60,483 bases of DNA from a virus. Lineage: Duplodnaviria > Caudoviricetes. This document shows positions 3,965 through 49,410 of the stretch, piece after piece. The translations under genes and the position numbers were made by a program. The number at the start of each line of letters is the position of its first letter. Within the stretch, counting starts at the first letter, position 1. The stretch lies in the IMG/VR virus record IMGVR_UViG_3300020045_006193, positions 1-60,483 of that record; one strand, 5' to 3'. A model generated the notes under the pieces. That model was given only the letters and a program-made list of their open reading frames with translations, made no database searches and had not been told where the DNA came from.

Positions 3965-3982
3965 AAAAACTGGAGAATTGTT

Positions 3983-4237
3983 ATGATGCTAGGCAATCTG
4001 TCAATTAATGAAATCGAAAAAAGAATGGGCGTAGTAATGCCCGATGATACAAAAGAGTTCATGGCGAAGTCGCACCAATCCCGCGCAGAGAATATAAGTG
4101 CTGGTAAATGGCACTGTTTTGATATTCCCTTTGTGCTGCTGTGCGGAGACGTGGAAACGGCGCAAAATATTTATGACGGAATAAAGCACCTTAGCAGTGA
4201 CATTAAGTGTCAGTTGCAAATTTCAATACAAGGTTGA
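3983..4237 (+). CDS. Hypothetical protein
   Basis: CTGGAGA RBS; 84 aa. Confidence 0.7.
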   Translation: MMLGNLSINEIEKRMGVVMPDDTKEFMAKSHQSRAENISAGKWHCFDIPFVLLCGDVETAQNIYDGIKHLSSDIKCQLQISIQG

Positions 4238-27100: not shown

Positions 27101-30100
27101 ATCCCCAATCATCAGCAAAGCTGATAACGCGGTTTCCTGTTCAGTATTAAGCTCAATCCCCAATAACTTAGCAATCGCATGAACAAATTGTGTCCACGCG
27201 GTCTTATCCTTGCCCATTTTAATATCGGCAAGCATTTTTTGGAATACGGGGTCAGTTAATCCATAGGTGATAAGTTCGCGTAAGTTTTCGGTAGCTAATC
27301 CTGATACTTTCTTTAAATCGCCTGTAATACCATTCTTTTCAACGTGCTTAGTAATTAGGTTAGCAATCAATTTAAGCTGAGTCCGCGCTATTTTTTCATC
27401 TCTAGTTAGCGTGGATTCATTCGTATTACCCATGATGGCATTAATCTTTTCGCCAGTTACCGCGTGAATCAGCTCATGAATAAATCCTTTCTCTACTGCG
27501 CTTTCTTTTAACTTGGGGGTAACTGCTAAATTAACCGATATGGCCCTAGTGCCATAGTCATAATTCATGACTCCCTCAGTGCCGCGCTTATTTTTTAGCG
27601 TATCGGCAATGACTATGTTTATGCCATCTGGAAGTTGACCGATTAGCTTATTGGCTAGGATTTGGTGTAGCGGAATTGCACTATTAGCTATGATGTGCTC
27701 TAGGACTGCGTTTACGTTCCCGCTGGATATAAGTGAATGCAGTGTTTGTTTTTTTGCTTGCGCGTTCCTTGGAGTAGCTGGCTGTTGATCGGCTTCCTGC
27801 AATCGCTTAATAGCTAATTCCGCATATTCTCTTAAATGATTAATTACTGATTTTTTAGCACTAAAATCATACGATTCCCGTGTTACAGGATTAAGCAGCA
27901 GGTAATGAGGGATATTTGTTTTTGACTTATTGAAAACTTGGTTAAATCCTGCCGCAATAGCATCATCAATAAATTTCTTTCCAGATACGCCGTTTATTTT
28001 ATTGCCATTTTCAGCCGACTCATCTATCCATTGCTCATTACGCGCTTTAGATTCTGCCTCGCTTATCTCTTTTGCTTTTGCTTTCCCATCAACAAGCCTT
28101 TGCTCTTGTTCAGCGCGTTCCTGCTCCGTAAGACCAGCAAAGTCATAAACCTTTTGACGCTTTTCGTTCATTGGAAGACGTAGATACGACCGTCCAAGTC
28201 CTGCTATTTTTGCAAACCCTAACTGACTACCTTCGTTAAAATCAGACGAGTTCACAAAGAAGCTCAACATCTCAGGAATATCTTTATTTATAAGTGCCGA
28301 TATTCTCTTATTGTAAAATTCATCGTTCCATCTATTATCGGTTTTTGCTTGCTCTATCCTGTCTTCGGCTTCTTTTTCTAGTTGCCCGATATATCTATTA
28401 TCAACTCCTGTATTTGTGTATTTCTTATGGCTTCTAATAGACTCTGAAAGGTTGCGCTTAATAGCAGTTATCAATCCATCGGTCATTCCTTCTGCTAATA
28501 AGCTACGGTATTTTTGCTCATCGGTTTCCGCACTCAAGTTTTCGTTGAATTGCGCCTTGCCCTGTTTAGCGGGTTCGGCTTTGTCGGTAGCAGGTTGTGA
28601 TAGCAGGTCTTCAAGTGATTTAATCTCACTCATACCAATAAAATCTTTACCTCCTGCCGAAGCATACCCGCCTAGCAAATGCTCAAGGGTGAATTTATCG
28701 GCGGTTTCTTTGTCGGCAAGCTCTCTAATCTGCCCCATTACATAACTGGCAGTTTCTTTGAATTTAACAAAGCCCATTTTTGCGGCAATGCGGAATATCT
28801 TAGCCATGATAGGAACAAGTTTGGTTTCTTCTTCCTCGGTCATGTTCATCTTTCCACCAAGCAAGGATACCGCCTCGCCTATGGCTTGCCCCATTTGTGC
28901 CTTGAGTTCTTCCATTTCGCTCAATGGCTTGGTTGCTACCTTGCTTTCAATAGGTTCAGCATCATAGCCCTGATACTCGGTTTTATCCTGAGACTCCCAG
29001 ACACCATTTTCATTTTGTGCCACTGCCACAATATCACCGTCGTCATTAACGGTATGTGTAGGGTTAAATTGTGTAGCGGGTTCAGCCTTAGCCCCACCCG
29101 CTTCATTTAGCACTTCGGTTTTGGTGGACGTTTCTTTGCCGTTGTTGCCTACTGTTGTGGTTGATTGCCCTGGGAGTGGAAATTTTCCACTACGAGAATT
29201 TACCGCTTGCGTGTCGGTTTCTTTCGGGGTTGGGTTCGTGCTTTTGCCATTGGGGGCTTCCTGTGTTGGTTGTGAGAATGGCTTTAAAAATGATTTTCTT
29301 TGTGGGATTACTTCGCCAAATAAATATTCTTCTGCATGGTCTTTTGTAGCGGCGGCATAACCATACTTTCTATTCTTATTTTTCTTGTCGTTGTACCTAT
29401 CATAATCAGTTTGGAATATTCTTTGCGTTAAGTCATCGCCCCTAGATTCAGCTTCTAAAATAGCATTTTCAATAAGCCAGTTATTTGTTTTTGTTACGTC
29501 ACGCCCAAAAATCTGAGTTCTATCAGGATTGTCTTTATGTTCATAAAGATTGAATTTAGGGTATGGCGTTGTTTTTCTGCCTGTTGATGTTAGAGCAACT
29601 TGCCCAGAAGCCATTTCTCCACCAACAACACCCGCCTTTGCTTCCTGTGCGCCAGTGCTATCAGCTGCGGGTGAGTTAGAATCTGCTCCTTGTGTTGCTT
29701 GTTGTGCTTTAGCTGTTGATGTATTTGTTTTTGTATCATTGGTTAATGGCGTTTGATTTCTAATTACTAAGCCGCGTGATTGTGCTTTGGCTATGGCTTC
29801 GTTATGCGCTTCACGGGAATTGTCCGATGGTTGCAGTGGTGCGCTAAATTCCTCAAGCGTTAGCCCGTGGTCTGGGACTTCGGTTTTTGCACTTAACTTC
29901 TCGCCATTATTTAGCGCGGTCACGATACGGTTATCGTATTCATCCTGTGCTTGTCTGGTAAAACCTGCCGTGTCCTTGCTTATTTCAGTAGCAGTTCTAG
30001 TTTTTTTACCAGCTTTTCTGTTTTCAGTATTTACCCATGCCTTAACGAAAGCATCTTTATTGCCTTTAGGTGTTTTACCGCTAGGTTTTACCGCCGCTGT

Positions 30101-32374
30101 CTGCGTAGAAACCGTAGCATTACTGGCTTGAACACTCGGTACTTCTGCCTGTTGTTGTGCGCCAGTGTTCGTATTCTGTCCTGCACGAACTTTGGAAACC
30201 TTAGTTGGCTCGTCCTGCGTAACAGTTGATGCTTTAGTTGGTTCTGTGGGTATGTTTGCAACATCAACACCAACAGTCTGAGCGATACGAAGTAAATCAT
30301 CAGCGTGCTTGGGGTTAAGTGTTTTTTCTTCGATTGCCTTATCGATTTCTGCCAGTGTAACCGCCGCTTGCTGTACATCTTCTGGCTTTGGTGCTGGCAA
30401 TAGTTTTTGATTGCCAATCCTGCCACGGACAACCTCACCATTAATCGCATCACTGCCTAGCAATTTCCGATTTACTGGGTTGCTAACTTCCTTGTTATCA
30501 ACTAATTCACCCTCAATTGCTGGGCTAGATAACTGTGCGTTTTTTGCAGTCTGACCATTTAGAGCATTACCTCCAATTGGTTGCAATGTCGGCGCAGTGT
30601 CAAGATTCACATTGTTTGGCTGTGCGCCTTGTGCTACTCCGTACTGGCTTGATTGTTGTGTTGGCTGTGGCGTAGCATTATTGTTACCACCCGCGCCACC
30701 TGCATTGCCACCAGAGCCGCCGCCAGCATTAGAAGCATTGGCTGTAGATGCTGGATTAATTGTAGGTGTAACACTAGCAGGTTGCGCCATTGCTCCAGCC
30801 GCTAAAGCCGCTTGCAAAATATCACCACGCGCTTTTGCATCAGAAAACGCCTTAGCCTGTGTTGCCGCTTTCGCGGTATTGGCGTTATCAATAATAAGCT
30901 GGTTAGCCTGTTCAGTTTCTAGTGATGGACGTGTGGCTTTATCGTAAGCTCTACCAGCACCGCCACCAACACCACCACTAAGCAAGCCCATTGCTCCGCC
31001 GCTTGCCGCTTGTTCGACAACGCCTTTCATTGGATCAACATCCGTGTAAGGCTGCATAGATACGTTTTGGGCATATTGACCACTCGCGCCCTGCATTGTT
31101 TCTTCAATACCTTCCCCTGCTGCGCCTTTTACTACGCCACCAGCAACCGCTTTTAATGTTGGAACTACCCCGCTTGCAATTGCATTAGTACCCGCTTTAC
31201 CAGCTAAGCGATTAAATAACGCACCCTCTAAGCCGCCACCTGTCACCAGTGACGCACCTGCACCAAGTGCCGCCGCTGGTGCAAACGCGGTATTACCAGC
31301 CATTTCCGCTGTAATTCGTACCGCTTCATCAAACCCTTTTTCATTCGCCAATTGTGCGAATTGCGGGTTTTTCATTAACTGGTCTGGGCTATTTTTAGCT
31401 AACCCTAAAAACTCATCACGCGCCGAATTAGACGCACCCGCACCCTCAAGTGTAGCGTTGCCTAAACCCATGATTGCTGCGTTTTGAAACTTATCGGCTT
31501 TAGCCGCTTTTGCTGCCAGTGCTTCAGCTTCTACTGCCTTTGTCGCACCAAATGCTTTTGCTTTCGTTGCACTGTCGATTAGGTTATCAGCTTCTTTAGA
31601 TGCTTTTGTTGCCAGTTTTGGCAATCCATCAGCCGCTAGTCTTTCGCCATTAGCTGCCGCTATATTTGCGCTGGCTATCCGCGCTTCTGCTTTAGCCGCT
31701 TCTTGCGCTGCTCTTGATGTTGCGTTAGCCGCTTTAGCAGTTAATTCTTCAGCTTTACCAACACCAGCTAACCCCTCGGCAACTTTCGCACCTTTCAATA
31801 AAGCCGATCCCGCTACGAATTGAGGAATAGATTCAATTAATGATGGCACTGTGCCGCGCGGGTTTTCAATAGTCGCGCCGAATGCCTTACCTGCTTTCTG
31901 CCCAGTGCTTAAGTTACTGTCATTGGTTATTGCCTCAAGGTCTGTACCAAGCTTAGTCTGTGCGTCCTGCGTACCTTGTGAATAAGGCATTGCTTCTTCT
32001 GCCAAATCAGCAAGTGGGCGAGTTGTAGCATCTCTGGCAATTCCCACTCCAGAATTTACAGTGTTTTCAATCGCACCACCTTGACCAGCGTTTTCATTAC
32101 CTGCTACCAAGTCTGCTATTTTTGCGTAACCACCTAACGCAGTTTGTGCGGTCGAGGCTACAGCATCGGGTAAGCTGATTAAGCCACGCACTACGCCTTT
32201 TGGTAGATCAAGATAACCGCTTGCTGTGTTGGCTAATTGCGGGGCTTGAGGCTTTGCTTGCAAAAACTCATCAAACATTCCAGTTCCAGTGCGTTCCTCC
32301 TTAGCTGGAATAACAGGCGGCTTATTCGTTTTATCGCTCGTTTGTTTTGGTAAAAACTCATCAAACATACCCAT
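15122..32374 (-). CDS. 5750-aa DarB-like polyvalent virion protein (N6-adenine MTase, SNF2 helicase, zincin motifs, ADP-ribosyltransferase-like domains, LPD38-like C-terminus)
   Basis: LEPSVGVG (~25450) and GNPPFG (~25260); HTVGTGKT (~23320), DEAH (~22835), TGTPISN, QREGRIIRQG (~21700); HELIH (~27470), HEIEH (~20385), HELGVH (~19335); YHAT, YHGT, YHGS (~19715, 18785, 18175); WDKIPEFIRERNL...IPMPLGF near the C-terminus. Confidence 0.9.
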   Translation of the reverse strand: MGMFDEFLPKQTSDKTNKPPVIPAKEERTGTGMFDEFLQAKPQAPQLANTASGYLDLPKGVVRGLISLPDAVASTAQTALGGYAKIADLVAGNENAGQGGAIENTVNSGVGIARDATTRPLADLAEEAMPYSQGTQDAQTKLGTDLEAITNDSNLSTGQKAGKAFGATIENPRGTVPSLIESIPQFVAGSALLKGAKVAEGLAGVGKAEELTAKAANATSRAAQEAAKAEARIASANIAAANGERLAADGLPKLATKASKEADNLIDSATKAKAFGATKAVEAEALAAKAAKADKFQNAAIMGLGNATLEGAGASNSARDEFLGLAKNSPDQLMKNPQFAQLANEKGFDEAVRITAEMAGNTAFAPAAALGAGASLVTGGGLEGALFNRLAGKAGTNAIASGVVPTLKAVAGGVVKGAAGEGIEETMQGASGQYAQNVSMQPYTDVDPMKGVVEQAASGGAMGLLSGGVGGGAGRAYDKATRPSLETEQANQLIIDNANTAKAATQAKAFSDAKARGDILQAALAAGAMAQPASVTPTINPASTANASNAGGGSGGNAGGAGGNNNATPQPTQQSSQYGVAQGAQPNNVNLDTAPTLQPIGGNALNGQTAKNAQLSSPAIEGELVDNKEVSNPVNRKLLGSDAINGEVVRGRIGNQKLLPAPKPEDVQQAAVTLAEIDKAIEEKTLNPKHADDLLRIAQTVGVDVANIPTEPTKASTVTQDEPTKVSKVRAGQNTNTGAQQQAEVPSVQASNATVSTQTAAVKPSGKTPKGNKDAFVKAWVNTENRKAGKKTRTATEISKDTAGFTRQAQDEYDNRIVTALNNGEKLSAKTEVPDHGLTLEEFSAPLQPSDNSREAHNEAIAKAQSRGLVIRNQTPLTNDTKTNTSTAKAQQATQGADSNSPAADSTGAQEAKAGVVGGEMASGQVALTSTGRKTTPYPKFNLYEHKDNPDRTQIFGRDVTKTNNWLIENAILEAESRGDDLTQRIFQTDYDRYNDKKNKNRKYGYAAATKDHAEEYLFGEVIPQRKSFLKPFSQPTQEAPNGKSTNPTPKETDTQAVNSRSGKFPLPGQSTTTVGNNGKETSTKTEVLNEAGGAKAEPATQFNPTHTVNDDGDIVAVAQNENGVWESQDKTEYQGYDAEPIESKVATKPLSEMEELKAQMGQAIGEAVSLLGGKMNMTEEEETKLVPIMAKIFRIAAKMGFVKFKETASYVMGQIRELADKETADKFTLEHLLGGYASAGGKDFIGMSEIKSLEDLLSQPATDKAEPAKQGKAQFNENLSAETDEQKYRSLLAEGMTDGLITAIKRNLSESIRSHKKYTNTGVDNRYIGQLEKEAEDRIEQAKTDNRWNDEFYNKRISALINKDIPEMLSFFVNSSDFNEGSQLGFAKIAGLGRSYLRLPMNEKRQKVYDFAGLTEQERAEQEQRLVDGKAKAKEISEAESKARNEQWIDESAENGNKINGVSGKKFIDDAIAAGFNQVFNKSKTNIPHYLLLNPVTRESYDFSAKKSVINHLREYAELAIKRLQEADQQPATPRNAQAKKQTLHSLISSGNVNAVLEHIIANSAIPLHQILANKLIGQLPDGINIVIADTLKNKRGTEGVMNYDYGTRAISVNLAVTPKLKESAVEKGFIHELIHAVTGEKINAIMGNTNESTLTRDEKIARTQLKLIANLITKHVEKNGITGDLKKVSGLATENLRELITYGLTDPVFQKMLADIKMGKDKTAWTQFVHAIAKLLGIELNTEQETALSALLMIGDNLLMDAQGKQSGQQQVIDGIKNSSIGQALGDKLVVGTVGFDKSPAETSEERAAKSYVISKNTNGTKTNNYTVSSMKGGTILAAFDYINGAAKDVKLYVGSIFGKDAAKIAIDRWVAERGNEPTVENSVTPQQLFEFNKALRGGLTAKSPMNGSDYKITKVNDNLYSVYRDGKLVSQHASMDSATGSFVEKAVRVEQEEKPPTIEELKADLSVLENEYANQGRVKNARTADRIDYLKGEIAKLENEPTAKPVVESVKESGLDKFNITPEQKDFAKQAMDSSLKTNGADIFYLKDRAILDERMYAQAKASIRKYYEDNRAFNELYEDEYIDDDGIFNYLASEVIRLAKQQGEPNDNLRINANPDSETAKGVKPQDVPTTGTNKPTTTTSKRENGIGNDATGSTDESRVSGTRGNGDNQRGRDDLVLNDNFTIDSPIAEGGQKTKFKNNIKAIGAIRKLANGEALTLDDKKDLSKYVGWGGIPQAFAKPDGTIAKGWEREAEELKSTLTPEEYDSARRSTQDAHYTSKEIITGIWKAVEQFGFNGGQVLEPSVGVGNFFGFMPAQLKPYAKLVGIELDKITSAIASALYPKARISNSGFQDYRIRKGSFDLAIGNPPFGQQKLFDKENKDLNHLSIHNFFFAKSLDALKDGGVLAMVVSNSLMDSNNANAREIFGRKAKLIGAIRLPNNAFSKNANTTVTTDIIFLQKLMPNETSNPDTWHDIGEINGVPINQYFIDHPENLLGEWGAFDSMFRGDEPALVAKDGQDTNKLLAEAIARLPKDIMPTAQQPIAFDGDGNPLYQYVPNQNYEDALNSSGFTEDEFDKTRQDVANARKNTYIKIKDRLFFKDAYGYIEEVKARINSKGEEVPLTLTEKNRILQMVEVSDVAIKLRDLQLKTDIGNSEIASARAILNAVYDSAVKKIGFMNNAANIRLFENDVNAPFLQSLEKNYDAGVSVAVSKSTGEPARKESAVKADIFTKRTQQPYSSPTRADNSKDALTISMSEKGGVDIKYMQELTGLSVDEITKDLHGLIYEDADKGWVSKEEYLSGNVKEKLAKATKQENIDALLPVIPKDVQAIDITVKSGAAWLPKDVSDAFIAHITGGSNAVAVYSSYNSKWTINTGSVAGSQAVGWGTSRADLSYLLTQAFNNGQASIYDTHKNPDGSESRVLNTDETNAANEKLGEIKTEFDDWIWSDSVRRDRLAKIYNDTFNVYASRNYDGSHLKFVGKVSDSIFKLRPHQFNAVWRVLQGGSVLFDHTVGTGKTATAIAAVMELKRTGKANKPLVVVPNHLVDQWGSDFMQLYPNANILVPTKNDFSAKRRKLLMARIASGDYDAIVIGHSQLTKIENPAEFEQDFIRWQINEVQAAINEMSRTTEGKKSRTVKQAEKAKDAMESKLQALIDMERDDNLDFEQLGIDALVVDEAHEFKNLQYTTGLERVAGLGNPVGSKKAFDLFIKTQFLLDKTGGNNLVFLTGTPISNAIAEMFTMMRYMSGDALKKEGVNVFDAWVRQFAEIVTDWELSPSGKYKQNTRLAKFYNMPELMAMYRQFSDTITREDIAKMGIALPVPKVTGGKPNNVVVEISDDQESYVNKLIERSENLPKGKLKKGDDNMLAIMSDARKAALDMRLINPTYGDNPEGKTNDAVRRINEIYKDTHSVNGTQLVFLDMSIPSGAVAKEKAAYDELVVKAEQGDETAQDALDKLSPDDISALNQKFSMYDDMRSKLVALGIPLNEIAFIHDANTDIKKGKLFGRVRSGSVRILFGSTSKMGAGMNVQNKLVALHHIDAPWRPSDLEQREGRIIRQGNEFFNENPNFEVQILRYATSKTLDSRMWQTIEGKANFIEQLRKGDITSREVEDVAGEASNAAEMKAAASGNPYILEEIKLRADVKKLQSLEKSHKRQQFDIERDIAKNEKFLDESNDILSDLKADAEQASNAPEKFSITVNGKLFSDKKKAGAEIISIGQKMALGEEKTISYAGFNIIVEKKTGFSDPYLKLTVKTKADYYDLSFHTDYITPNAEEESGQQQSPLGLSQRIENKVDSIIDLVPRFEKSIKAAQSELPKLKEQIKPFKDADKLKEVADKHKEVNRLLQAKDENKEPDTEIKPSKSTPSTNTQPHLLTQSEFRELYPDVLHRVATNPDLDKRIIEKAGSNDPKKIFEYYQGLYPSELSDVNVEIVPTPRPTRSWFDVETGVNTKTGEVVTKKTIWLFSKFSEQQLKDWDVKGGGVDLSTPSILRHEIEHAIDYARGKKDGHKPTSNPDQGGKATFKDFDHANFSVDFLHRALVNDALKEGLSVPDNVLADYPELQDRTGVFESRGDKPTNAHTLTSFTQAFTSQLDKQFGQGWTKLLMATGKVKVVSSEEADRIISGGELFSFKPVIIDHNDDKSRILVDTGKGEKWFNTDEIGIERDWVGINADSDDLPELLAAIKKKKPSQQAIYSDDENEETALYEIDKDGNAIVYHATSKANANKILKSGKFQAGSFFEPNANSTLKHVTGRIKNPVILKVRIKKDLLGSAAAGAEIYVDDAVEFTPFDVNKPYFFESDIDAQYSKNGKVQAFYNPANDTTYFAADNIDKNKDLLGLAAHELGVHALQLGKDDKNFKAILSEVDRMIASNSSKAIRTALARAKEANTKAEHVTEEVLAYLVENHPRLTLVQKFLTWFRNKLRAIGKALPPVQRTEWFRKVTAMTESDLVGMAISALKQAPNDLLFDSVGRSGDSIKLAQQQGYKGNDIGESEEWLRAVAKGLDMSKEARMARAKAMGFDVDTPYYHGTTNAGFNEFSKSRFKNIFFFTESKALAEKFAYEDFNEIKESKYKEGDTRDVYEVFLNKGRQFTKEDAEKAVYGFYDEGNQFLWDQGYPWELVIAEVKAAHWETYEDYGTAYFLYYLKGHGFDSFTLKEPTSQYDRTQIETIGVFNSNQIRSINAAFDPDFADSPNLLASKFSVAPKRWSRAFFDWWNGSKFSDKNGQPVKFYHGSNSTFYEFSHAKIGTGTPNHSTSGLGFFFSPQRETATNYGSDVREFYLSAQKVKDMTVDQLPQFDSIEEAKAYADKLKAQGFDAIYLKDAKYAIVFESNQAKLTSNEEPTQSPDIRYSMASAATDSIKSTFSQKAKDNAIYLLQDKYIDLKRRMQDVVKNGGIITEDQDPRMAEELYHKRLSQRVDDFLKDELNPILKGLHDAGLSMDSFQKFLHAKHAPSRNAVMAERNPNQQMIDDAIALHTANGDDKELARWKRARPFKGTEEERLSLSGISDADAQAVIDALSPTDKAKMQALANKVYAINQKTLDLQVEYGLETQQTIDDLNAAWENYVPLHRDEAHPEQNSHPVGSGFSVQGSAFKNATGSNSEVTNILSHIAMAREQALTRGEKARVDTALINFLTAHPDPDFAVVGKVPTVDSLVNGFVETHIDPSYRNKDNYVMTRHNGKDIGIEFNPRNESAARLALALKNMDGADLDMVENIIAKGTRWFASVNTQYNLVFGIMNLMRDAQGGLINLASTPLAGKQASVMKAIAPALKAIYGAERGNATTGAMADLYREYSLAGGTTGFRDLFADVNQRHKAIQREFDKHGDSQARLALSATFKWLSDFNTAMENSVRLAAYKVARDNGLSIDKSASIAKNITVNFNRKGAATTKIGAFYAFFNASVQGNTRMFETLRSPAGKKLLASGVALGAAAALLGITAMGADDWDKIPEFIRERNLIIPDFANKGKYFAIPMPLGFNVIPNIGRKSVEMIFGSNKVSKTQRFGELLTSVIDNFNPLGGKDIGQTITPTVADPIVALWRNKDWTGKTIYKEDFSSLNPTAGFTRKKDTATGASKLAAEAINKLTGGTDYKQGAWSPTPDQLDYVFGQFGGGTYRELANAAQAAATPFNNEELPVRKVPLLGKLYGETSGNAVERGAYYDNLRRLNEHENEINGLKKEPSGRVKIAEYLSENPDAKMVNKAKGFEKIVNNLTKRRKELMAKNADSSVIRGIDDRIAQRMKVLNDSVFNSLR

Positions 32375-34517: not shown

Positions 34518-34594
34518 TGGCGTTCCCAGTCGGACTTGAACCGAACATCAGCGATTTGAAAGACCGCTATCCTAAACCTTTAGACGATGAGAAC
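34518..34594 (-). tRNA. tRNA-Glu(TTC)
   Basis: Full cloverleaf; GCGGT-CTTTCAA-ATCGC; GGTTCAAGTCC T arm; CCA end. Confidence 0.9.
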
Positions 34595-34603
34595 ATTTAA
34601 AAC

Positions 34604-34677
34604 TGGCAGTTCCAAGACGATTTGAACGTCTGATTTCACAGTCAAAGTGTGATGTGTTGCCGCTACACTATGGAACA
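34604..34677 (-). tRNA. tRNA-Gln(TTG)
   Basis: TCACA-CTTTGAC-TGTGA; T arm AGACG-TTCAAAT-CGTCT; unpaired 1:72; CCA end. Confidence 0.88.
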
Positions 34678-34684
34678 TTAATTT

Positions 34685-34759
34685 TGGTAGCGAAGGCTGG
34701 AGTTGAACCAGCTACATTAGGCTTATGAGACCCACAATCTACCGTTGATATACTTCGCT
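34685..34759 (-). tRNA. tRNA with CAT anticodon (Met or Ile2)
   Basis: AGCGAAG/CTTCGCT-A-CCA; TGGGT-CTCATAA-GCCTA; GCTGG-TTCAACT-CCAGC. Confidence 0.85.
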
Positions 34760-34771
34760 AAATTATTATTA

Positions 34772-34844
34772 TCAGGGTGGAGAGGCTCGAACTCCCGACC
34801 GAACACTTCCAAGGTGTTCATTCTACCAACTGAAATACACTCTG
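34772..34844 (-). tRNA. tRNA-Pro(TGG), CCA not encoded
   Basis: CAGAGTG/CACCCTG-A; AACAC-CTTGGAA-GTGTT; GGGAG-TTCGAGC-CTCTC. Confidence 0.85.
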
Positions 34845-34863
34845 ATAATAATAACTAAAAAAC

Positions 34864-34933
34864 ACTGTGCAGTAGGATTCGAACCTACAACTTTGGTTAT
34901 GAATCAATGTTCAGCCATTTGAACTATACACAG
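34864..34933 (-). tRNA. Degenerate tRNA-like gene (CAT in a poorly paired anticodon arm)
   Basis: Acceptor CTGTGTA/TGCACAG, D arm GTTC/GAAC and T arm GTAGG-TTCGAAT-CCTAC are intact; anticodon stem short and mismatched; no CCA. Confidence 0.6.
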
Positions 34934-34982
34934 TTTACTGCATCAAACACACCCAATCAGCAGTCTTTCCCGCTGTCTAAAC

Positions 34983-36293: not shown

Positions 36294-36929
36294 TTAAATA
36301 TTACCCATAAACCATTGTTTTGCTTTTTTAGATAAAATCCCGCCTACATCTTTCATGGTCAAATTATTATCAGTAAGAACATCAGCTTCTTCTTTTGAAA
36401 CATCTTGAGATACCCATTTTATGAATGATCCTATCAACTTAATATCTGGCTCAACATTGGTTTTCTCAAACAACTCGTTCCACGCTTGATTTAATCGACT
36501 TTCAGTTACTGCGTAAGCGACAAAATCAGCGATGCTATTCATTTTTTCAGTATCAACCTCGGCAAGAACTTTTACCCCAAAAATGAAAAACGACCTTTCA
36601 ATTTCAGAAATTCCAACGCCGCGCTGTATTCCTTTTCCAGCCCATTCACCATAAATAACAATTGGTAAATCGGTGTTTATTTGACTGTAGAAATCCAGAA
36701 AAACGAGTGATTTTTCATTGTGGAATCTAGCGAATCCAGCATTATCGTTTTCAACTGTAATAATATTGTTTCTTGATTGTGCATAATTTTCAGGCAAAAC
36801 AACACTGGCATTTGTGCCGTGAATTTTCACTGTACCTTGAAATTCAAGAATTGGCATTGAATCTTTAAATGCAAATCCAATATCTTTTATGACGTTTCTG
36901 AATTGCTCTATTGAGTGGTATTTATACAT
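36294..36929 (-). CDS. Rnl2-type RNA ligase, apparently with an internal deletion
   Basis: Motif I KIHGTN, QSR, DNAGFA, motif III IYGEWAG and IIIa FFIFGV are present; no EGxV (IV) or KxK (V) motif is visible. Confidence 0.7.
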   Translation of the reverse strand: MYKYHSIEQFRNVIKDIGFAFKDSMPILEFQGTVKIHGTNASVVLPENYAQSRNNIITVENDNAGFARFHNEKSLVFLDFYSQINTDLPIVIYGEWAGKGIQRGVGISEIERSFFIFGVKVLAEVDTEKMNSIADFVAYAVTESRLNQAWNELFEKTNVEPDIKLIGSFIKWVSQDVSKEEADVLTDNNLTMKDVGGILSKKAKQWFMGNI

Positions 36930-37030: not shown

Positions 37031-38092
37031 TTAAGCAGAAAGCGACTCGCCATAGCTCCAAGATTTACCCGTACTAAACGACTGACTAAGATTAATACCG
37101 TTCATCCAGTTTGCACCGACCTGACCATTAACGGCTGCAATAGATTTTATCTTCTCAATGCCAAGCTGTGCGTTGCTTGTGTAATGCGCTTCAATCAGTT
37201 TGATTTTTTCCAGTGAGATATTGGTTAGCTGGATATTCATCTCATTAACCTGTCGGTACTGCTCCATCCTGAACTTAGCTTCTTCGATAGTGACACCAGT
37301 CAATGATGAATACGCCTGAATCTCGCTTGCGTATATATCAATAAAACCCCTATTAATATCGATGTAAAGCATTGCCGTATCGATAACAGTTTTTTTCTGT
37401 GAGTCATACAGACTTAGTTCGTTGCCTTCACTGGCTTGTTTTAAGTCAAGCAATCTGGCGTTGAGCGATAACAATTGATCCAATGCCTTTTGCTTAATAG
37501 CCAGCTCAACATCAATCTGCTTAATCATGATGTCTCGGTTAATGTCCGATAGCTTACCCTTCTTTTCCAGTTCAAACCGCATGAATGCCGCTTGGTCTTG
37601 ACCGCTTGCCGCTTCAAATCCCATTGATAAACTACTGGCTAAGTAGGTTTGATAACCTGCACGCTGTAATTTTGTTTCACGGTCAACACCCTTGGCATAA
37701 ATAGCATCAAACATCACCCCCATTACACCGTAAGGGTTTGCTAGTAGCGATTCAATCTCGGATATTAATCGATTGATGACCCCGATAATCATGTCCTTAT
37801 CAGCAATTACCGTAGTCCATAAATAAGGCGCGGCTGGCATAGCACCAATTGGCACATCTAGCAATAGCGGCTTTGTTGGGATAGCAGGTAAAGCCCCTAG
37901 TGCAATGTCAGAAGGATTTATCAGCGCGGTAGTAAGTCCTGAAAAGTCAGGAAAAGGCGTTAATGCCGTCGACATACCATTGACTGCATTTGTCGCGGCT
38001 GTAAGAGCTTTTACCGCCTCATCGAATAACCGATTAAGATATGAATCGTTTACCGATGTTATAGAATTTAAAAATTGATGTTGTGCTGACAT
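37031..38092 (-). CDS. Probable internal virion / ejection protein
   Basis: 353 aa, helical/coiled-coil; last gene of the tail module. Confidence 0.55.
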   Translation of the reverse strand: MSAQHQFLNSITSVNDSYLNRLFDEAVKALTAATNAVNGMSTALTPFPDFSGLTTALINPSDIALGALPAIPTKPLLLDVPIGAMPAAPYLWTTVIADKDMIIGVINRLISEIESLLANPYGVMGVMFDAIYAKGVDRETKLQRAGYQTYLASSLSMGFEAASGQDQAAFMRFELEKKGKLSDINRDIMIKQIDVELAIKQKALDQLLSLNARLLDLKQASEGNELSLYDSQKKTVIDTAMLYIDINRGFIDIYASEIQAYSSLTGVTIEEAKFRMEQYRQVNEMNIQLTNISLEKIKLIEAHYTSNAQLGIEKIKSIAAVNGQVGANWMNGINLSQSFSTGKSWSYGESLSA

Positions 38093-39405
38093 TACCGCTC
38101 ACTCCTAACATTTTCAACAGGGTTATATTCAATAGAGCTAATATCAAGATGTGCGCATCCTGTGCCAACTACTTCAAGCTGAACATAGTTAAATTTTATA
38201 CCTCGCCCTATTGGTACGCGGTGAGTGGCAAAACCACTATGACTGATTGCATTTGCGTATGATAAAGGCGCGTTTTCGTCCTCTGTGACATTTACCGTCA
38301 CTTTTCCGCCTGATTTGTCGCAATCAATGACAATTTTTGCATCGGGTATGCGCTTAATTTTGTTGCTTGGGTAAACGCCATTCTTGCCCGGTACACCATT
38401 CATCTTACCAGTCTTCATGCTGGCAACTATCGCTATTCCGTTATCGGACTCACCGCCATACTCAAACACCCCGGTATCATTTATAAGCAAAGTTTTTCCG
38501 TTAAACACGCACGACCCAGTAAAGTTAAAATTACTGTAATTGGTTATAGCTTTTGTTTCTGTACCGTAGGCATAGCCTAGGTAGTTTGCATCATTAACTG
38601 TAAGACTGGGCGTACTGTAAAGCGGGTAGACACCGACAACATTAATCACGCCCACGCTTGGGTTATTAACAGTAGGTGTAGAAAACAGCGGCACAGCATC
38701 AACGCGCTGTATCGACATTGCAGTAGGGTTGTTTAGCGTTGGTGTTGCCGTTAATGCGGTTACTGGTGTTTTTGCTATTATGCCAACAGTGGGCGCGCTT
38801 AATGTAGGCGTGGACGTTAGCGCGGTTGCTGTTATGTTTTGCGGATAGTTTACCGCTGGATTGTTTAGTGTTGGTATTGAGGCTAGTGCGGTTGCTGACG
38901 CATTAGCTATGACGTAAGCAGTGGGATTATTTAGTGTTGATTCAGCGGTTAGTGGTGTTGCTGGAATATCTACTGGGCCTATATTAAAGATCTGTGTAGT
39001 CGCAGAAAAAACAATACCAGTTCGTGTCTCTGCCGTTGTCCAAGTCACGCCATCATCAGAATAAAGGATATTCCAACTCTTAGGGTTTTCATTAGTACCG
39101 ACACCATACACTGTTAGCGAATAGAAAATAACATCAACAGCCGTGGCAAAGTGATAAATCAGCTTTTGCGAAGAAGATAAAGGATTGACTGAACTCCAAT
39201 AAAGGGCGGTGGAGTCAAAAGCATAAGCCGCCACATATCCAGAACTAAGCTCAGAAGTAGCAGAAGCCGTGCCGCCAGTGCATAAGTCAGCACCTCCGCC
39301 AGTGTCAAACATCTTAAGCTCATTAATAAGCGTCCCGTAAGTTAATGGATCGCCTAGTACATCTGTAACTTCTATTGCCCAATATGCGTGTGTAGCCATG
39401 ACCAT
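38092..39405 (-). CDS. Virion protein with N-terminal discoidin (F5/8C)-like domain and ~22-aa repeats
   Basis: GGTASATSE..AYAFD...W.S...PKSW.I.YSDDG.TWT; six T/P-rich repeats of the ATALTSTPTLNNP type. Confidence 0.7.
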   Translation of the reverse strand: MVMATHAYWAIEVTDVLGDPLTYGTLINELKMFDTGGGADLCTGGTASATSELSSGYVAAYAFDSTALYWSSVNPLSSSQKLIYHFATAVDVIFYSLTVYGVGTNENPKSWNILYSDDGVTWTTAETRTGIVFSATTQIFNIGPVDIPATPLTAESTLNNPTAYVIANASATALASIPTLNNPAVNYPQNITATALTSTPTLSAPTVGIIAKTPVTALTATPTLNNPTAMSIQRVDAVPLFSTPTVNNPSVGVINVVGVYPLYSTPSLTVNDANYLGYAYGTETKAITNYSNFNFTGSCVFNGKTLLINDTGVFEYGGESDNGIAIVASMKTGKMNGVPGKNGVYPSNKIKRIPDAKIVIDCDKSGGKVTVNVTEDENAPLSYANAISHSGFATHRVPIGRGIKFNYVQLEVVGTGCAHLDISSIEYNPVENVRSER

Positions 39406-39500
39406 TCCTTAAATTTCTAGTAATTATCGCACTAATGGCGATAAATTATAACTATTTTAAATATAAGCCATTGATTTTGCTATAGCATATAATTACGCGC

Positions 39501-39529
39501 TTGCGTAAAGGCGAAAAAAGGCGAATACT
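39501..39529 (+). promoter_or_regulatory. Probable promoter of the pilin cassette
   Basis: TTGCGT-17 bp-AATACT; AAAAAAGGCG before the -10, as at 2747-2756. Confidence 0.55.
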
Positions 39530-39567
39530 TTAATCGTAGTTTTATTTCAATCCATTTGGAGAGTGTC

Positions 39568-39744
39568 ATGAGTGCAATTTATTTATTATTAGCTTTGTCA
39601 ATCGCTGGATTCCTAGTCCTGTCTTTTAACTTTCGTACTGCGCTGGTTTTGCATCACTTTCGCATCAAAGAAATGCACATATCGCCGCTGTTCTTTGCGT
39701 GGATTTTGTGCCTGTCCTACTTGATCGCGTATGTGCAATCATGA
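39568..39744 (+). CDS. Small two-TM membrane protein
   Basis: GGAGAG RBS; two hydrophobic stretches; ATGA-coupled to the pilin gene. Confidence 0.7.
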   Translation: MSAIYLLLALSIAGFLVLSFNFRTALVLHHFRIKEMHISPLFFAWILCLSYLIAYVQS

Positions 39745-40325
39745 AAGGTCACAACGGCTTTACGTTACTTGAGCTTACGGTGGCAATTGGAATTACCGCC
39801 GCTTTGGCAATCATTGCCGCGCCGTCATTTTTTGATATGCTTAGTAACAGTCGAATGACCGCTAATAATAATGAACTTGTTGGCGCGTTAAATCTGACTC
39901 GTAGCGAGGCGATTAAGCGCGGTACTCCAGTTGGAGCATATCTTAATCAGCAATACCTTGATAAGGATGGAGTGACTACTAAGGAAGCGTACCTTATCGT
40001 GAAACAGACCGACTGCAATAACGTAGGCTGTTTTTTGAGGATTTACGACAAACTGCCTGAACATTTCACGGTATCGGCGGTTAAATTACAGGGCATAAAC
40101 GAAAATAATATCAATTCTGTCGCTATTAATTTCATTGAGTTTTCTAATCAGGGGGTAACAGGTGCTTTTGAGTATGTGAAAATATGCTCACAAGGTAACA
40201 TCAAAGCGGTGTCGATTAATTATCTTGGCAGGATTTCATCTGCAAAAGATACTAATAATAATGGCACTCTTGATATTAAGATAAACGAAACCGTGATAGA
40301 AGTACCGCTATGCCCGATACGGTAA
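39741..40325 (+). CDS. GspH/FimT/FimU-family type IV minor pilin
   Basis: Prepilin site MKGHNG|FTLLEL (Glu+5), hydrophobic helix ending AAPSF, then N.LVGALNLTRSEAIKRG; paired Cys. Confidence 0.92.
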   Translation: MKGHNGFTLLELTVAIGITAALAIIAAPSFFDMLSNSRMTANNNELVGALNLTRSEAIKRGTPVGAYLNQQYLDKDGVTTKEAYLIVKQTDCNNVGCFLRIYDKLPEHFTVSAVKLQGINENNINSVAINFIEFSNQGVTGAFEYVKICSQGNIKAVSINYLGRISSAKDTNNNGTLDIKINETVIEVPLCPIR

Positions 40326-40489
40326 ACATAGGTAGGTCGCTTGCGGGTATGAGGAAGATTGTTTCCCATACCTGCAATAACCCAGAATGCCTAAAACCCT
40401 ATTTTGGATTCACCAATAAGAAGTATTGTTGCGGCAAGTGCAAAGACAGGGGCGGGTATCTAACTAGGCTTAGGGAGCTTGGTAAGTGA
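40310..40489 (+). CDS. 59-aa zinc-finger protein (below the ORF-track cutoff)
   Basis: MPDTVNIGRSLAGMRKIVSHTCNNPECLKPYFGFTNKKYCCGKCKDRGGYLTRLRELGK; overlaps the pilin stop. Confidence 0.6.
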   Translation: MPDTVNIGRSLAGMRKIVSHTCNNPECLKPYFGFTNKKYCCGKCKDRGGYLTRLRELGK

Positions 40490-42148
40490 TATGCAGGTCG
40501 TTGACTGCTCTACTATCTTGCGCTTTTTATCTTTAAAATCTGCAATAAGCGTAAATGATTTGTCTATCGAATCACCATCAACAACGTCATAGGTATTAAT
40601 TGTGGCTACCATTGTATTTTTTGTGTATGAATAGTCGTCAACAAATGCCTCTGTTAATGCCTTGTCACTCGTGTATAGCACTCCTGATTTTTTTGAAATC
40701 ACAGATAACGCAGTAGTAGTGATGGATGTCTCGCTTATAACCCCATAATCACCACTTGGCAAAGTGCCCTCTTCTTTCATACTTGTGTGCTGCTGGGATA
40801 CGTCGGAATAAATGCACTCACTTACCTTTTTTAGAAATAAAGCAATGTATGTCCATGTCGCGTCCGAGACTACAGATGTAATTAATCCAGTATCTCCGCT
40901 TGTTAAAGTCTGGGTCGATTGCCAATTACTGGAAGATGTCGCAAGCAAATCCCGATTCAATCCATCTTTTTTTGACCATGAGACCAGATAATATTCACTA
41001 GCCCCTACTTTAGTTTGGAGCGGGTAATAAGTAAAATATGGGGCTGTTGCTTCTGTGATAGTTTGAACATCAGAAGCGGTCTTTTCTACAGCAAAAGAAA
41101 CTACCCCGCCCCTAATATCAACGTAGTCACAGGAGATATTCTCAGTTGGCACTATTAGTGTCGTGACTCCATCACTTGATGCTTCGTTATAGCCGTCTGA
41201 TACCCAAGGTTGTGACTCATAAATAATCTCATCAGTTAAAATACCGTCGTAAGCTGGATTAAACTCAAGGGTATTTATCGTAGGAACGTGAATGGTAATT
41301 CCATAGGGGTGATCGGCTGGATAATAAATTCTATCAACAGTGCCATGTATAGCCAGTCGTTTAGCGTCTCCAAAAAAACCAATTAGCTCATTTTCACTAT
41401 ATCCAAGTGCTGTAAAGTCGGATTCGATAATCTCTGTAAGCACAATGTCAGAGGCATTAAAATCCAGTTCGTAACCAAAAACACCGATGTACCGATTTAA
41501 CCCTGTTTCAGCATAATCAACCCTATCATGATAAATAATAACTATTTGCTCAACAGCCGTACCGTCGCTATCTTCCTCTATTAATGCACACGCCAATGGC
41601 TCTAAAAACTTACCCCAAAGTAAGCCAGTTTCGATACCGTTTATCGCTATTTTCCCGTACTTTCTTTTTCTGTTTATGTGACCGACAGGGAAACTTGTAT
41701 CTAAATACTCGACATAATCCCAGCTAACAGTGGCATTTTCCTTGTCATTTACCCAGTAATTTGTTCGTGCGCTGTAGGTCGGCGTGGGTAGCACTAAGTA
41801 ATTCGGATTATCATCGGCTAAAATCAAATCACCTTGTTTTTTGGCAGGGTATGGAGCTTTATAGATTTGAGTACCTAAGTCGGTATCATTAAATGACGTA
41901 GGAAAAAGAACTGCCTCGCCCTCACTGCCAACAGGAGCTACATAAATCTTAACGACACCGCGTTTTTCACCATACGCAGTCCAAATAGTGGCTTGCATGA
42001 CGGTAGTATCGTTGCGCTTCTCGCGCTGAATAGATTGCGCCTCACCCATTGAACTACAGACGAACTGATAAAAAGCCAGTGCCGCACCTTTGAGCGTACT
42101 GGCTTTTTCAATATCCCCATAATACTCAAGGCGAGGCGGTGCAAGCAT
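40460..42148 (-). CDS. Acidic tail-associated virion protein
   Basis: 562 aa, beta-rich composition, coupled within the tail operon. Confidence 0.55.
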   Translation of the reverse strand: MLAPPRLEYYGDIEKASTLKGAALAFYQFVCSSMGEAQSIQREKRNDTTVMQATIWTAYGEKRGVVKIYVAPVGSEGEAVLFPTSFNDTDLGTQIYKAPYPAKKQGDLILADDNPNYLVLPTPTYSARTNYWVNDKENATVSWDYVEYLDTSFPVGHINRKRKYGKIAINGIETGLLWGKFLEPLACALIEEDSDGTAVEQIVIIYHDRVDYAETGLNRYIGVFGYELDFNASDIVLTEIIESDFTALGYSENELIGFFGDAKRLAIHGTVDRIYYPADHPYGITIHVPTINTLEFNPAYDGILTDEIIYESQPWVSDGYNEASSDGVTTLIVPTENISCDYVDIRGGVVSFAVEKTASDVQTITEATAPYFTYYPLQTKVGASEYYLVSWSKKDGLNRDLLATSSSNWQSTQTLTSGDTGLITSVVSDATWTYIALFLKKVSECIYSDVSQQHTSMKEEGTLPSGDYGVISETSITTTALSVISKKSGVLYTSDKALTEAFVDDYSYTKNTMVATINTYDVVDGDSIDKSFTLIADFKDKKRKIVEQSTTCISLTKLPKPS

Positions 42149-48704: not shown

Positions 48705-49015
48705 GGAATCAATCCTTTTAAGTTAATCTGCGGATATGTTGCGACTCTAAATGAACCAGTATAAGTCGTTGCGTCTCCTACAGTATGCGCTTCAAATCCA
48801 ATCGACGGCTTCTTGCGCCAATAGATAATACGATGCTCGTCATCTTCTACATTTGATTCATTCAATAAATTTCTTATCGACTGAATATCGGATGCAAGTT
48901 TTTGAGCGACTTCAAATTGACTATCTGACCGATAAACGAAATTTACATACTCAGTAATATTTCCATTTTTATCGTGAAAATCTCCTTTAGACGCGCCATC
49001 TATTTCCGTTATCAT
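48701..49015 (-). CDS. Hypothetical protein
   Basis: ATGA overlaps on both sides. Confidence 0.65.
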   Translation of the reverse strand: MITEIDGASKGDFHDKNGNITEYVNFVYRSDSQFEVAQKLASDIQSIRNLLNESNVEDDEHRIIYWRKKPSIGFEAHTVGDATTYTGSFRVATYPQINLKGLIP

Positions 49016-49410
49016 AACAGTACCTCGATAACCGCAGTATCAGTAATCACACTCACTACGTTGCGGTCATTGATAAACCGTAGTTTGTGCTGTTCTTTGT
49101 TATGACTAATTGTCAGATTAACGCCATCGTGACATTGATAATGAATAATATCGCCAACTTTACACCATGCTTGTGATGTTCCAAATTCACGACCACCACG
49201 AAAAGACGGGTCGTCATAAGCAGAATCACCCATTGCAATTACTTTGCCGATGTTTCTAAAATACTCAGCCGCTTTCACGCTATCATCCAATAATGCTATG
49301 CCGCCCTCGCTTTCTTTACGCATTTTCACGGGCGCGATCAATACCCGCCAGCCCGTAGGCTTGGGTAACAATTCAACTGGTACGCCGTCCGCTTCAAAAT
49401 TTAAAGCCAT
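49012..49410 (-). CDS. groES: GroES-like co-chaperonin
   Basis: PKPTGWRVLI...SEGGIAL...GKVIAMG..AY...WCKVGD...RFIND. Confidence 0.85.
   Translation of the reverse strand: MALNFEADGVPVELLPKPTGWRVLIAPVKMRKESEGGIALLDDSVKAAEYFRNIGKVIAMGDSAYDDPSFRGGREFGTSQAWCKVGDIIHYQCHDGVNLTISHNKEQHKLRFINDRNVVSVITDTAVIEVLL

Follow-up and report, generated by a model that had tools for sequence, protein, structure and literature searches.

Genes and features of the locus

The window analysed here, a complete phage record of 60,483 bp, carries three co-directional plus-strand open reading frames between minus-strand genes at 38092-39405 and 40460-42148, inside a virion block that also holds head-closure, capsid and portal genes. 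The features of the locus are listed below, where L002 denotes a second contig bearing the same cassette.

38092..39405, minus strand: left-flank virion gene, 437 aa (435 aa from the start shared with relatives, at 39399)
39409..39425, minus strand: relic of the 562/573-aa virion gene (its last five codons and stop), at the insert's left edge
39426..39567, plus strand: conserved non-coding leader or regulatory region of the cassette, from alignment to L002
39488..39493, plus strand: perfect -10-like hexamer TATAAT, identical in L002, a candidate promoter element
39493..39508, plus strand: palindrome TTACGC-GCTT-GCGTAA, operator-like, directly after the -10 hexamer and invariant in L002
39507..39525, plus strand: two direct 9-nt repeats, AAAGGCGAA, with a start-to-start spacing of 10
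39568..39744, plus strand: orphan two-TM membrane protein, 58 aa, ATG at 39568, with a copy in L002
39741..40325, plus strand: type IV minor prepilin of the FimU/FimT/GspH family, 194 aa, from Pfam, structure and PDB profile
40310..40489, plus strand: Cys4 zinc-finger-like ORF, 59 aa (C22/C27/C40/C44), from profile relatives
40460..42148, minus strand: right-flank virion-block gene, 562 aa, the most divergent of the block, 60-64% identical to relatives

The initial annotation had described three mutually overlapping frames antisense to their flanking genes, and the coordinates and overlaps bear this out, with 4 nt (ATGA) shared by the membrane-protein and pilin genes, 16 nt by the pilin and zinc-finger-like genes, and 30 nt by the last of these and the convergent 562-aa gene. 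All three plus-strand genes are real, and between the window and L002 they evolve with dN/dS values of 0.11-0.27 (0.11 for the prepilin, 0.17 for the membrane protein and 0.27 for the Cys4 ORF). The presence of the same cassette, with the same junctions, on an independent contig argues against an assembly chimera. The GC content of the cassette, 0.38-0.45, is similar to that of its surroundings and thus gives no sign of recent import. Two related contigs were found, and the cassette is present in one (L002) and absent from the other (L004), which has a clean junction in its place; the cassette can therefore be regarded as a moron-like indel. The relic at 39409..39425 matches the genuine 3' terminus of the 573-aa gene as it stands at this cassette-free junction, with 18 of 20 bases in agreement in a local alignment (TCCTTAAATTT.T.GTAATT).

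The left-hand neighbour, 76-82% identical to its relatives, carries a carbohydrate-binding F5/8 type C domain (6.6e-8) and matches both tail and virion-structural PHROGs and, in the PDB, the phage structural protein 26gp (2.6e-4). The 562-aa gene on the other side has no family in Pfam, PHROG or the PDB and lies in a block of which ten conserved genes are 87-98% identical to relatives; we regard its product as a candidate receptor-binding protein. The proposed tail operon is thus borne out in part, by the left flank, and the right flank lends it no family match. Nothing found indicates the pilus receptor that had been thought possible for this phage, or any use of pili by its kin, and the adjacent virion protein has a carbohydrate-binding domain.

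The phage had also been described as showing no lysogeny genes, in keeping with which no integrase or resolvase family occurs in the complete record (no match to PF00589 or PF00239, a result that leaves room for other forms of lysogeny). Likewise, PF00589 has no match in a 94%-complete relative, and no recognisable repressor was seen among the ORFs scanned. The phage does carry Rha, KilA-N, NinX and O/DnaB-type genes, which are typical of temperate lambdoid phages.

A FimU-like minor prepilin

The prepilin starts at ATG 39741 with the leader MKGHNG followed by FTLLE, so that G-1, F+1 and E+5 form a class III (prepilin) signal. Three profiles recognise the protein above their cut-offs, namely Pfam GspH (PF12019; 32.1 bits, cut-off 21), Pfam N_methyl (24.6 bits, cut-off 21.2) and TIGR02532 (20.3 bits, cut-off 16.3), and GspH scores 32.7 bits in a six-frame search of the record. 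GspH/FimT-type domains are present in all 177 homologues of the prepilin. Its AF2 model (pLDDT 91.3) has the N-terminal helix and two beta-sheets of the GspH-type fold seen in FimU, EpsH and GspH, and superposes best on FimU of P. aeruginosa (4IPU; VIA-align Z 14.8, rmsd 2.5 over 119 residues), followed by EpsH (Z 11.6), XcpH (10.5), GspH (9.1) and Legionella FimT (8.7), the next unrelated structure lying below 6. FimU is also the top Foldseek match of the model (E 2.5e-5) and the best match in a PDB profile search with the sequence (4.6e-12). The claim of an intact FimU/FimT-like prepilin is thus well founded. A search of the viral structure library BFVD gave no match at E<=1e-3.

Like cellular FimU and FimT (4IPU; 7QYI), the phage pilin combines a prepilin signal and a GspH-family fold with the cysteine pair of the D-region, here C149 and C191, which may form a disulphide as in FimU-type pilins; C191 is conserved in every one of 39 aligned sequences and C149 in all members of a set of seven. 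Unlike them, it is encoded away from pilV/W/X/Y1 and has a long branch in the tree; the W..GW.VF.D stretch of the consensus is missing from it, and it has its own insert at about residues 115-127 together with a CNNVGC loop. No pilV, pilW, pilX or pilY1 gene neighbours the phage pilin gene, which accordingly does not head such an operon as fimU does. The C-terminal GRxR motif that marks FimT (PMC8897410) is incomplete (GRIS) in the copies of both the window and L002; G[RH]xR is kept by 22 of 40 relatives in the Methylococcales. The DTNNNGT stretch, which the initial annotation had likened to a calcium loop, spans residues 170-176, and the loop is indeed present as D-x-N-x-N-G-x-x-D, a form common to 27 of 76 cellular relatives. 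The proposal that all loop-bearing sequences form one clade was rejected in an AU test (p 1.7e-81), which is a poor test here since the loop-bearing cellular sequences are themselves scattered.

Relatives of the pilin and clues to the host

The cellular comparison used 76 sequences from the best 80 cellular matches, four incomplete ones having been dropped; duplicate loci of one contig and nine other viral loci were also left out of the pilin tree. The phage pilin is 28-40% identical to cellular FimU/FimT, and 40 of the 76 cellular sequences belong to the Methylococcales. In all four of the nearest cellular loci checked, the homologue is the first gene of a type IVa minor-pilin operon, PilV-PilW-PilX(-PilY1). 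The pilins of the window and L002 form a pair on a branch of 2.0 substitutions per site, at a node that the tree does not resolve, and a repeat run minus five long sequences did not settle the placement either.

A piliated proteobacterial host had been proposed, and with the Methylococcales so prominent among the cellular relatives a gammaproteobacterial host is plausible. A capsid search confined to the order on which the relatives centre, the Methylococcales, gave a match in 2 of 301 genomes (34-37% identity); the head-closure protein was sought in these two genomes and not found. Confined as it was to this one order, the search is uninformative as to the host.

A conserved leader upstream of the cassette genes

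Positions 39400-39575 align to L002 positions 9651-9832 with a mean column identity of 93%, while dS in the cassette genes is 0.36-0.94. The initial annotation had assigned the cassette its own promoter, which could not be confirmed: between 39200 and 40800 there are four consensus sigma-70 sites, against 4.5 +/- 1.8 in shuffled sequence, and none of them lies in the spacer (39406-39567). The conserved TATAAT lacks a good -35 partner, and since the best -35-like hexamer (TTGATT, 39471-39476) is just 11 nt upstream, the promoter is a candidate. No terminator was found.

The palindrome that follows the hexamer pairs as a 5-bp hairpin in a fold prediction and, from its sequence, may serve as an operator. 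Both copies of the 9-nt repeat share one C-to-A change in L002, which with two copies is suggestive only. As an RNA, the leader folds no better than shuffles (z 0.52), and a search against Rfam gave no family at E<=0.1.

Two companion genes

The ATG of the membrane-protein gene is preceded by GGAGAG (39558-39563), 5 nt upstream of it, and two hydrophobic segments lie at the two ends of the protein (19-residue Kyte-Doolittle windows >1.6). Among 5.8 billion proteins, its sole match is the L002 copy, 76% identical; in Pfam, DUF4014 appears at E 0.055, below the cut-off, and the ESM Atlas offers unnamed clusters with scores of at most 0.89.

The Cys4 ORF had been called unannotated, and even its own sequence is missing from the protein collection. 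Run against 1.84 billion proteins, a profile retrieved 24 at E<=1e-3, the best of them at 1.8e-10, and the four cysteines are invariant across 23 aligned members of the family. Codons 1-16 carry three synonymous changes and no non-synonymous ones relative to L002. The AF2 model has a pLDDT of 55.9. In Pfam the window ORF matches no family at E<=10; the 23 family members gave weak matches throughout, to DUF2256 in eight cases (best E 6.8e-4), DUF2116 in five, zf-MYND in four and zf-CGNR in one, and none of these was accepted as a name for the ORF, the gathering threshold not being reached. PDB profiles gave nothing below E 0.7, tblastn against phages gave chance-level matches only, and a cluster look-up of ten relatives returned no names. 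The ESM Atlas places the ORF near unnamed small phage clusters (0.92-0.93), one of which bears the name NinG on 14% of its members; these are leads only.

Loci of Cys4 relatives were searched with a single relative (P0122) as query. Relatives occur in 13 other viral contigs, and in all five of those examined the gene lies within a block between helicase genes and polynucleotide kinase, with no pilin; in one representative, three fingers in tandem are joined to an HNH nuclease. A search of 91 further loci, the 80 cellular fimU/fimT loci among them, turned up neither companion. Thus, with the Cys4 family found elsewhere without a pilin neighbour and the membrane protein an orphan, a joint function of the three genes is unproven. 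The three-gene module of the initial annotation is weaker than proposed: the genes overlap and are gained or lost together, but the Cys4 gene has no pilin beside it in the five other contigs examined, and the membrane protein is known from the sister phage only.

Comparison with known phage pilus systems

The precedent that the initial annotation invoked does exist, in the form of P-FimU from the F10-like P. aeruginosa prophages JBD68, F10, LES2 and LES3 (Sztanko et al., Cell Rep 2026, PMC12952977). According to that study, P-FimU enters the pilus and blocks tip-binding phages, its gene lies inside the tail cluster behind conserved promoters, and the diverse tail protein PTP4 sets sensitivity to it; P-FimU is described there solely from F10-like P. 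aeruginosa prophages, and every P-FimU protein tested supported normal pilus function (PMC12952977). Its authors also point out that non-temperate phages can carry pilin genes and that exclusion is practised by virulent phages as well (PMC12952977).

The cassette pilin resembles P-FimU in being a phage-encoded, full-length minor pilin of the FimU family, in the place of its gene within a virion or tail block beside a highly variable tail gene, in its distance from cellular counterparts (28-40% identity here, 28% to host FimU there) and in its conserved upstream region (93% identity here, conserved p-fimU promoters there); the divergence of the 562-aa gene likewise parallels that of PTP4 (PMC12952977). 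However, the phage group is different and so probably is the host, for there is no Pseudomonas signal, and the cassette gene runs opposite to the virion genes, accompanied by two small overlapping genes. Moreover, the F10-like phages are prophages, whereas neither this record nor the 94%-complete relative yielded an integrase or recombinase family, so the prophage-defence setting of P-FimU does not apply (PMC12952977). A tblastn search with the pilin of 50,697 phage records, among which the presence of F10-like phages is unconfirmed, gave no match at E<=1e-3 and chance-level ones at E<=10, which we take to suggest independent acquisition. We therefore consider P-FimU the closest precedent and read the cassette pilin as a further, independently acquired case in a phage in which no integrase was found. 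Further phage genes target type IV pili and thereby keep rival phages out. PilA-like genes, also known from virulent phages (PMC12952977), mimic the major pilin, and Zip and Aqs1 are cytoplasmic inhibitors of PilZ/PilB, whereas the cassette encodes a predicted minor pilin of the tip.

A model of pilus-tip exclusion and its alternatives

These data allow a model to be proposed in which the cassette most likely alters host pili such that rival phages can no longer attach. Upon infection, the host prepilin peptidase would process the phage prepilin, which would then enter the pilus-priming (tip) complex and displace host FimU. The strongly diverged globular face of the phage pilin, apparent from its branch of 2 substitutions per site and its own loops, may alter the tip, so that tip-recognising phages, above all kin, would no longer adsorb to the infected cell or its remains. 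Such a mechanism would be that of P-FimU, arrived at independently. Late read-through of the virion genes would run against the cassette, which lies antisense to them, and we propose that its products are synthesised ahead of virion production or separately from it. The Cys4 protein would most likely act as a small regulator that binds nucleic acid, possibly at the conserved palindrome and repeats upstream, and the membrane protein may be an accessory that adds a second layer of exclusion or assists the pilin. Overall, that the cassette is a moron-like insert around a FimU/FimT-type minor pilin (type IVa) made by the phage, and that this pilin replaces FimU at the tip and thereby prevents adsorption of tip-recognising phages, is a reading to which we assign a probability of about 0.5.

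How far the companions belong to this function is a separate matter, and it is quite possible, if short of probable, that there is no single module and that the pilin is a stand-alone moron whose insert it shares with two unrelated small genes. The pilin-free Cys4 loci beside helicase and polynucleotide kinase genes, the HNH fusion and the failure to find either companion in the other loci searched all favour such a view, as does L006, another phage contig, in which a FimT-like pilin beside an integrase has no such partners. On the other hand, the three genes have been gained or lost together across three related phages, and they overlap behind a single conserved leader. It may also be that the cassette shuts pili down rather than re-tipping them, an excess of phage pilin, perhaps with the membrane protein, poisoning priming or assembly until the infected cell loses functional pili; pilus-dependent phages would then be excluded and progeny would not be wasted on infected cells. 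FimU over-expressed alone does disrupt pilus assembly (PMC12952977, in its Discussion), a pilin on so long a branch and only 28-40% identical to its cellular counterparts could be a poor partner, the upstream membrane-protein gene is translationally coupled through the ATGA overlap, and, as no lysogeny genes were found, high expression in the lytic cycle is plausible. We nevertheless consider shutdown unlikely, as purifying selection has preserved all the features of a working pilin, the D-region cysteines and the globular domain among them, whereas a mere poison would need just the N-terminal helix. The P-FimU study describes truncated PilA-like genes of this sort in other phages and normal pilus function with every P-FimU protein tested (PMC12952977).

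Tip exclusion also has to be set against readings in which other phages play no part. The pilin could benefit the host through adhesion, twitching or DNA uptake, since pilins of the FimT type are DNA-binding and aid natural transformation (PMC8897410), and the Rha, KilA-N, NinX and O/DnaB-type genes fit such a conversion. However, the GRxR DNA-binding motif is incomplete in both phage copies while many Methylococcales relatives keep it, neither an integrase or resolvase family nor a repressor was recognised, and the structure is nearer to FimU than to Legionella FimT, which together leave host benefit improbable. Finally, the protein could mimic a pseudopilin (GspH) and act on the type II secreton of the host instead of its pili. 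The Pfam family is named GspH, GspH is the top NCBIfam entry, and EpsH, XcpH and GspH structures align at Z 9-12. However, the NCBIfam equivalog for T2SS GspH (TIGR01708) reaches 24.9 bits against a cut-off of 80, with a match limited to residues 4-70, FimU is the best match in both structure and PDB sequence, and all four nearest cellular loci lie in PilV/W/X/Y1 and not gsp operons, so that this last reading is very improbable indeed.

The tip-exclusion reading can be carried further, to a portable three-part unit for pilus-tip replacement by which a virulent phage edits a receptor against its own kin within the lytic cycle, although we hold this extension to be doubtful. In such a unit, the Cys4 regulator would time expression via the palindrome and repeats, the membrane protein would load the phage pilin or block host FimU, and the pilin would re-label tips so that sibling virions ignore infected cells, co-evolving with the neighbouring hypervariable virion protein.

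To our knowledge, P-FimU is the only studied case of a phage exchanging a receptor component for its own working copy. The cassette and L006 suggest that environmental phages, probably ones infecting methanotroph-like Gammaproteobacteria, came upon this trick independently, that it is not tied to lysogeny, and that it tends to adjoin fast-evolving receptor-binding genes. If the model is correct, the cassette would help to trace the host of an uncultured phage group, offer a second system in which to follow phage-versus-phage evolution at the pilus tip, and give the small phage Cys4 proteins, so far uncharacterised as a family, a first context. The L006 gene resembles that of the cassette in that it is a phage gene for a GspH/N_methyl pilin with tail-fibre-like genes as neighbours, whereas its integrase neighbour and the absence of the membrane-protein and zinc-finger companions set it apart as a moron of a temperate phage. 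The two pilins are distant relatives, their match being confined to residues 6-65 at 48% identity.

Organization and coding status of the cassette

The window record is complete (60,483 bp, with direct terminal repeats at its ends), and its cassette lies antisense between two genes of the virion block, laid out as follows:

38092-39405, - strand: left flanking gene, 437 aa
39493-39508: palindrome TTACGC-GCTT-GCGTAA in the leader
39568 (ATG), + strand: TM ORF, 58 aa, with two hydrophobic segments and GGAGAG at 39558-39563
39741 (ATG), + strand: pilin ORF, 194 aa, its start overlapping the TM ORF stop as ATGA
40310-40489, + strand: Cys4 ORF, 59 aa
40460-42148, - strand: right flanking gene, 562 aa, convergent with the Cys4 ORF

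The Cys4 ORF shares 16 nt with the pilin gene and 30 nt with the 3' end of the 562-aa gene. The pilin begins MKGHNG, then FTLLE, and exceeds the Pfam cut-offs for both GspH (32.1 bits, cut-off 21) and N_methyl (24.6 bits, cut-off 21.2). As ORF layout and Pfam scores agree, the description of three overlapping genes including an intact prepilin was correct, and the initial annotation as a whole is sound in what it observed, its promoter excepted. Two related IMG/VR contigs were found: L002, which carries all three genes in identical arrangement, and L004, in which the cassette is absent and genes of 573 aa and 435 aa are separated by 8 nt. Since the L004 junction has no cassette, and since the window and L002 both retain, at the cassette's left edge, a remnant of the closing codons and stop codon of the 562/573-aa gene, its presence or absence is, judged from these junctions, a clean indel of ~1.05 kb; the short duplicated target would fit an insertion and, equally, a deletion between repeats. 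Identical junctions on two independent contigs (window and L002) speak against an assembly chimera, and the cassette's GC is similar to that of its surroundings. Between the window and L002, the only two sequences compared, amino acid identity and dN/dS were 76% and 0.17 for the TM ORF, 80% and 0.11 for the pilin, and 83% and 0.27 for the Cys4 ORF, whose codons 1-16 hold three synonymous and no non-synonymous changes; by these measures all three ORFs behave as coding genes. L004 has another small insert at 11038-11241 (+), a 67-aa ORF between its 435-aa and 353-aa genes, which abut in the window.

Leader region

The promoter attributed to the cassette was not established: a consensus scan returned no site in the 39406-39567 spacer and a site count for the region not above shuffles, and a perfect TATAAT at 39488-39493 has no properly spaced -35. 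The same scan of the cassette region found no terminator. Aligned with L002, the leader (39400-39575) has a mean column identity of 93%, beside a dS of 0.36-0.94 for the cassette genes. In addition to the palindrome, it holds two copies of a 9-nt direct repeat at a start-to-start spacing of 10 nt, both bearing the identical base change in L002; neither a significant RNA fold nor an Rfam match was obtained for it. The leader may be a protein-bound control region.

Identity and cellular relatives of the pilin

A homologue search recovered 177 proteins, every one with GspH/FimT-type domains, the top cellular one being 40% identical. For an AF2 model (pLDDT 91.3) derived from a 39-sequence alignment, Foldseek returned Pseudomonas aeruginosa FimU as the top solved structure (E 2.5e-5), and VIA-align gave a Z of 14.8 (rmsd 2.5 over 119 residues), as against 11.6 for EpsH, 10.5 for XcpH, 9.1 for GspH and 8.7 for Legionella FimT. 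FimU was likewise first in a PDB profile search (4.6e-12), and the score against the NCBIfam GspH equivalog (24.9 bits) lay far under its cut-off of 80. C149 and C191 line up with the conserved D-region cysteines; unlike the family consensus, the phage protein is without the W..GW.VF.D stretch and has its own insert at about residues 115-127 and a CNNVGC loop. The DTNNNGT motif, which had been likened to a calcium loop, is real and belongs to a D-x-N-x-N-G-x-x-D loop, a type that can bind calcium, but it is also present in 27 of 76 cellular relatives (20 of these among the 40 Methylococcales rows) and hence is not phage-specific. The GRxR motif, given in PMC8897410 as a mark of DNA-binding FimT, is incomplete in both phage copies (GRIS).

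A cellular scan with one genome per species yielded 532 pilin relatives, and the 80 most similar to the phage protein were retained; Methylococcales account for 40 of the 76 usable rows and for all of the top five matches, with identities between the phage pilin and its cellular relatives of only 28-40%. Because the homologue heads an operon continuing with PilV-like, PilW and PilX genes in all four of the closest loci examined (PilY1 being next wherever the locus extends far enough), the cellular relatives are, by operon context, type IVa pilus fimU/fimT genes and not T2SS genes. As to the host, which the pilin phylogeny was proposed to predict, Methylococcales are the richest group among the 76 rows, but the tree leaves the phage pair unplaced, on a branch of 2.0 substitutions that joins an unresolved node; a Methylococcales-like gammaproteobacterial host is therefore a lead and not a result. 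A capsid search over 301 Methylococcales genomes was uninformative about host. In a minor-pilin operon of Methylomonas rivi (L019, 6996-8805), pilV and pilW are separated by a HEPN gene together with a nucleotidyltransferase domain, which is read as fused to the PilW ORF.

Companion genes

A synteny search for the companions found neither in the other 91 loci searched, the 80 cellular fimU/fimT loci among them. For the TM protein, the L002 copy was the sole relative among 5.8 billion proteins. The Cys4 ORF matched no Pfam or PHROG family; a two-sequence profile retrieved 24 proteins at E<=1e-3 among 1.84 billion (best E 1.8e-10), mostly of 54-127 aa (two longer, 343 and 383 aa), with a common layout and four invariant cysteines, and members match DUF2256, DUF2116, zf-MYND and zf-CGNR, all weakly. 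In the top match, three copies in tandem are joined to an HNH nuclease domain, suggesting nucleic-acid binding. Relatives of one member occur on 13 viral contigs (IMG/VR, L104-L116) of another phage group than the window's; in all five examined the gene follows helicase genes and immediately precedes polynucleotide kinase, with no pilin nearby (24/50 ORFs scanned). Because of this setting, the family is, as far as gene neighbourhood tells, a general small phage gene and not a dedicated pilin partner.

Genomic context and the virion block

Scans of 40, 23 and 19 ORFs against PHROG and Pfam identified terminase, portal, capsid and head-closure genes, a DnaB-type helicase and O-like initiator, Rha, KilA-N and NinX, an RNA ligase, an endolysin and a DarB-like giant protein. 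The last is a single ORF of 5,750 aa (15122-32374, -), parts of which match a DarB-like antirestriction PHROG in methyltransferase and helicase segments (E 0 and 1.9e-223), with a weak match to a virion RNA polymerase PHROG (3.7e-16); this giant product is probably injected. The impression that lysogeny genes are lacking fits the scans, with no integrase or resolvase family match in the window record and no recognisable repressor in the scanned ORFs; a 94%-complete relative likewise had no integrase family match. Within the structural block, ten conserved genes share 87-98% identity with those of L002 and L004. The genes of 562 aa (60-64%), 437 aa (76-82%; F5/8-type-C carbohydrate-binding domain) and 626 aa (66%) have diverged more, so that the cassette adjoins the fastest-evolving virion genes. 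With the 67-aa ORF of L004 counted as well, the block looks like a preferred site for small morons.

Five clustered tRNA genes (Glu-TTC, Gln-TTG, two Met-CAT, Pro-TGG; 34518-34934, -) separate the giant-protein block from the virion genes. An RNA-ligase-like gene (36294-36929, -; PF09414, 5.4e-10) flanks the virion block, and a match to a GroES-like co-chaperonin PHROG (49012-49410, -; 1.4e-13) adjoins the portal region.

Comparison with phage-borne pilins

The prophage precedent invoked in the initial annotation exists. According to Sztanko et al. (PMC12952977), F10-like P. aeruginosa prophages carry within their tail cluster a FimU-like gene, P-FimU, with conserved promoters; its product enters the pilus tip, keeps normal pilus function and stops adsorption of tip-binding kin phages, a hypervariable tail protein setting the specificity, and PilA-like genes occur in non-temperate phages too. 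Set against that account, the cassette is alike in gene kind, virion-block location beside a variable gene, divergence from host versions and conserved leader, whereas its phage group, probable host, apparent lack of lysogeny, antisense orientation and two companion genes set it apart. By this analogy it belongs to the recently described P-FimU kind as a further case, its function being predicted. The favoured reading, given a probability of about one half, is of a pilus-tip replacement like P-FimU but acquired independently, which would exclude pilus-dependent, probably kin, phages. The main mechanistic rival to tip replacement, in which excess phage pilin shuts down pili, appears rather unlikely.

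A phage-collection search with the window pilin gave no sequence match. A second phage with a pilin, unrelated to the window phage, is the 86.5-kb IMG/VR contig L006 (DTR), whose 196-aa GspH/N_methyl FimT-like pilin (locus 1878-4030) has an integrase neighbour: it directly follows a tyrosine integrase and faces, in convergent orientation, a 567-aa gene and a 360-aa gene bearing CBM_4_9, with tail-fibre-like genes alongside.
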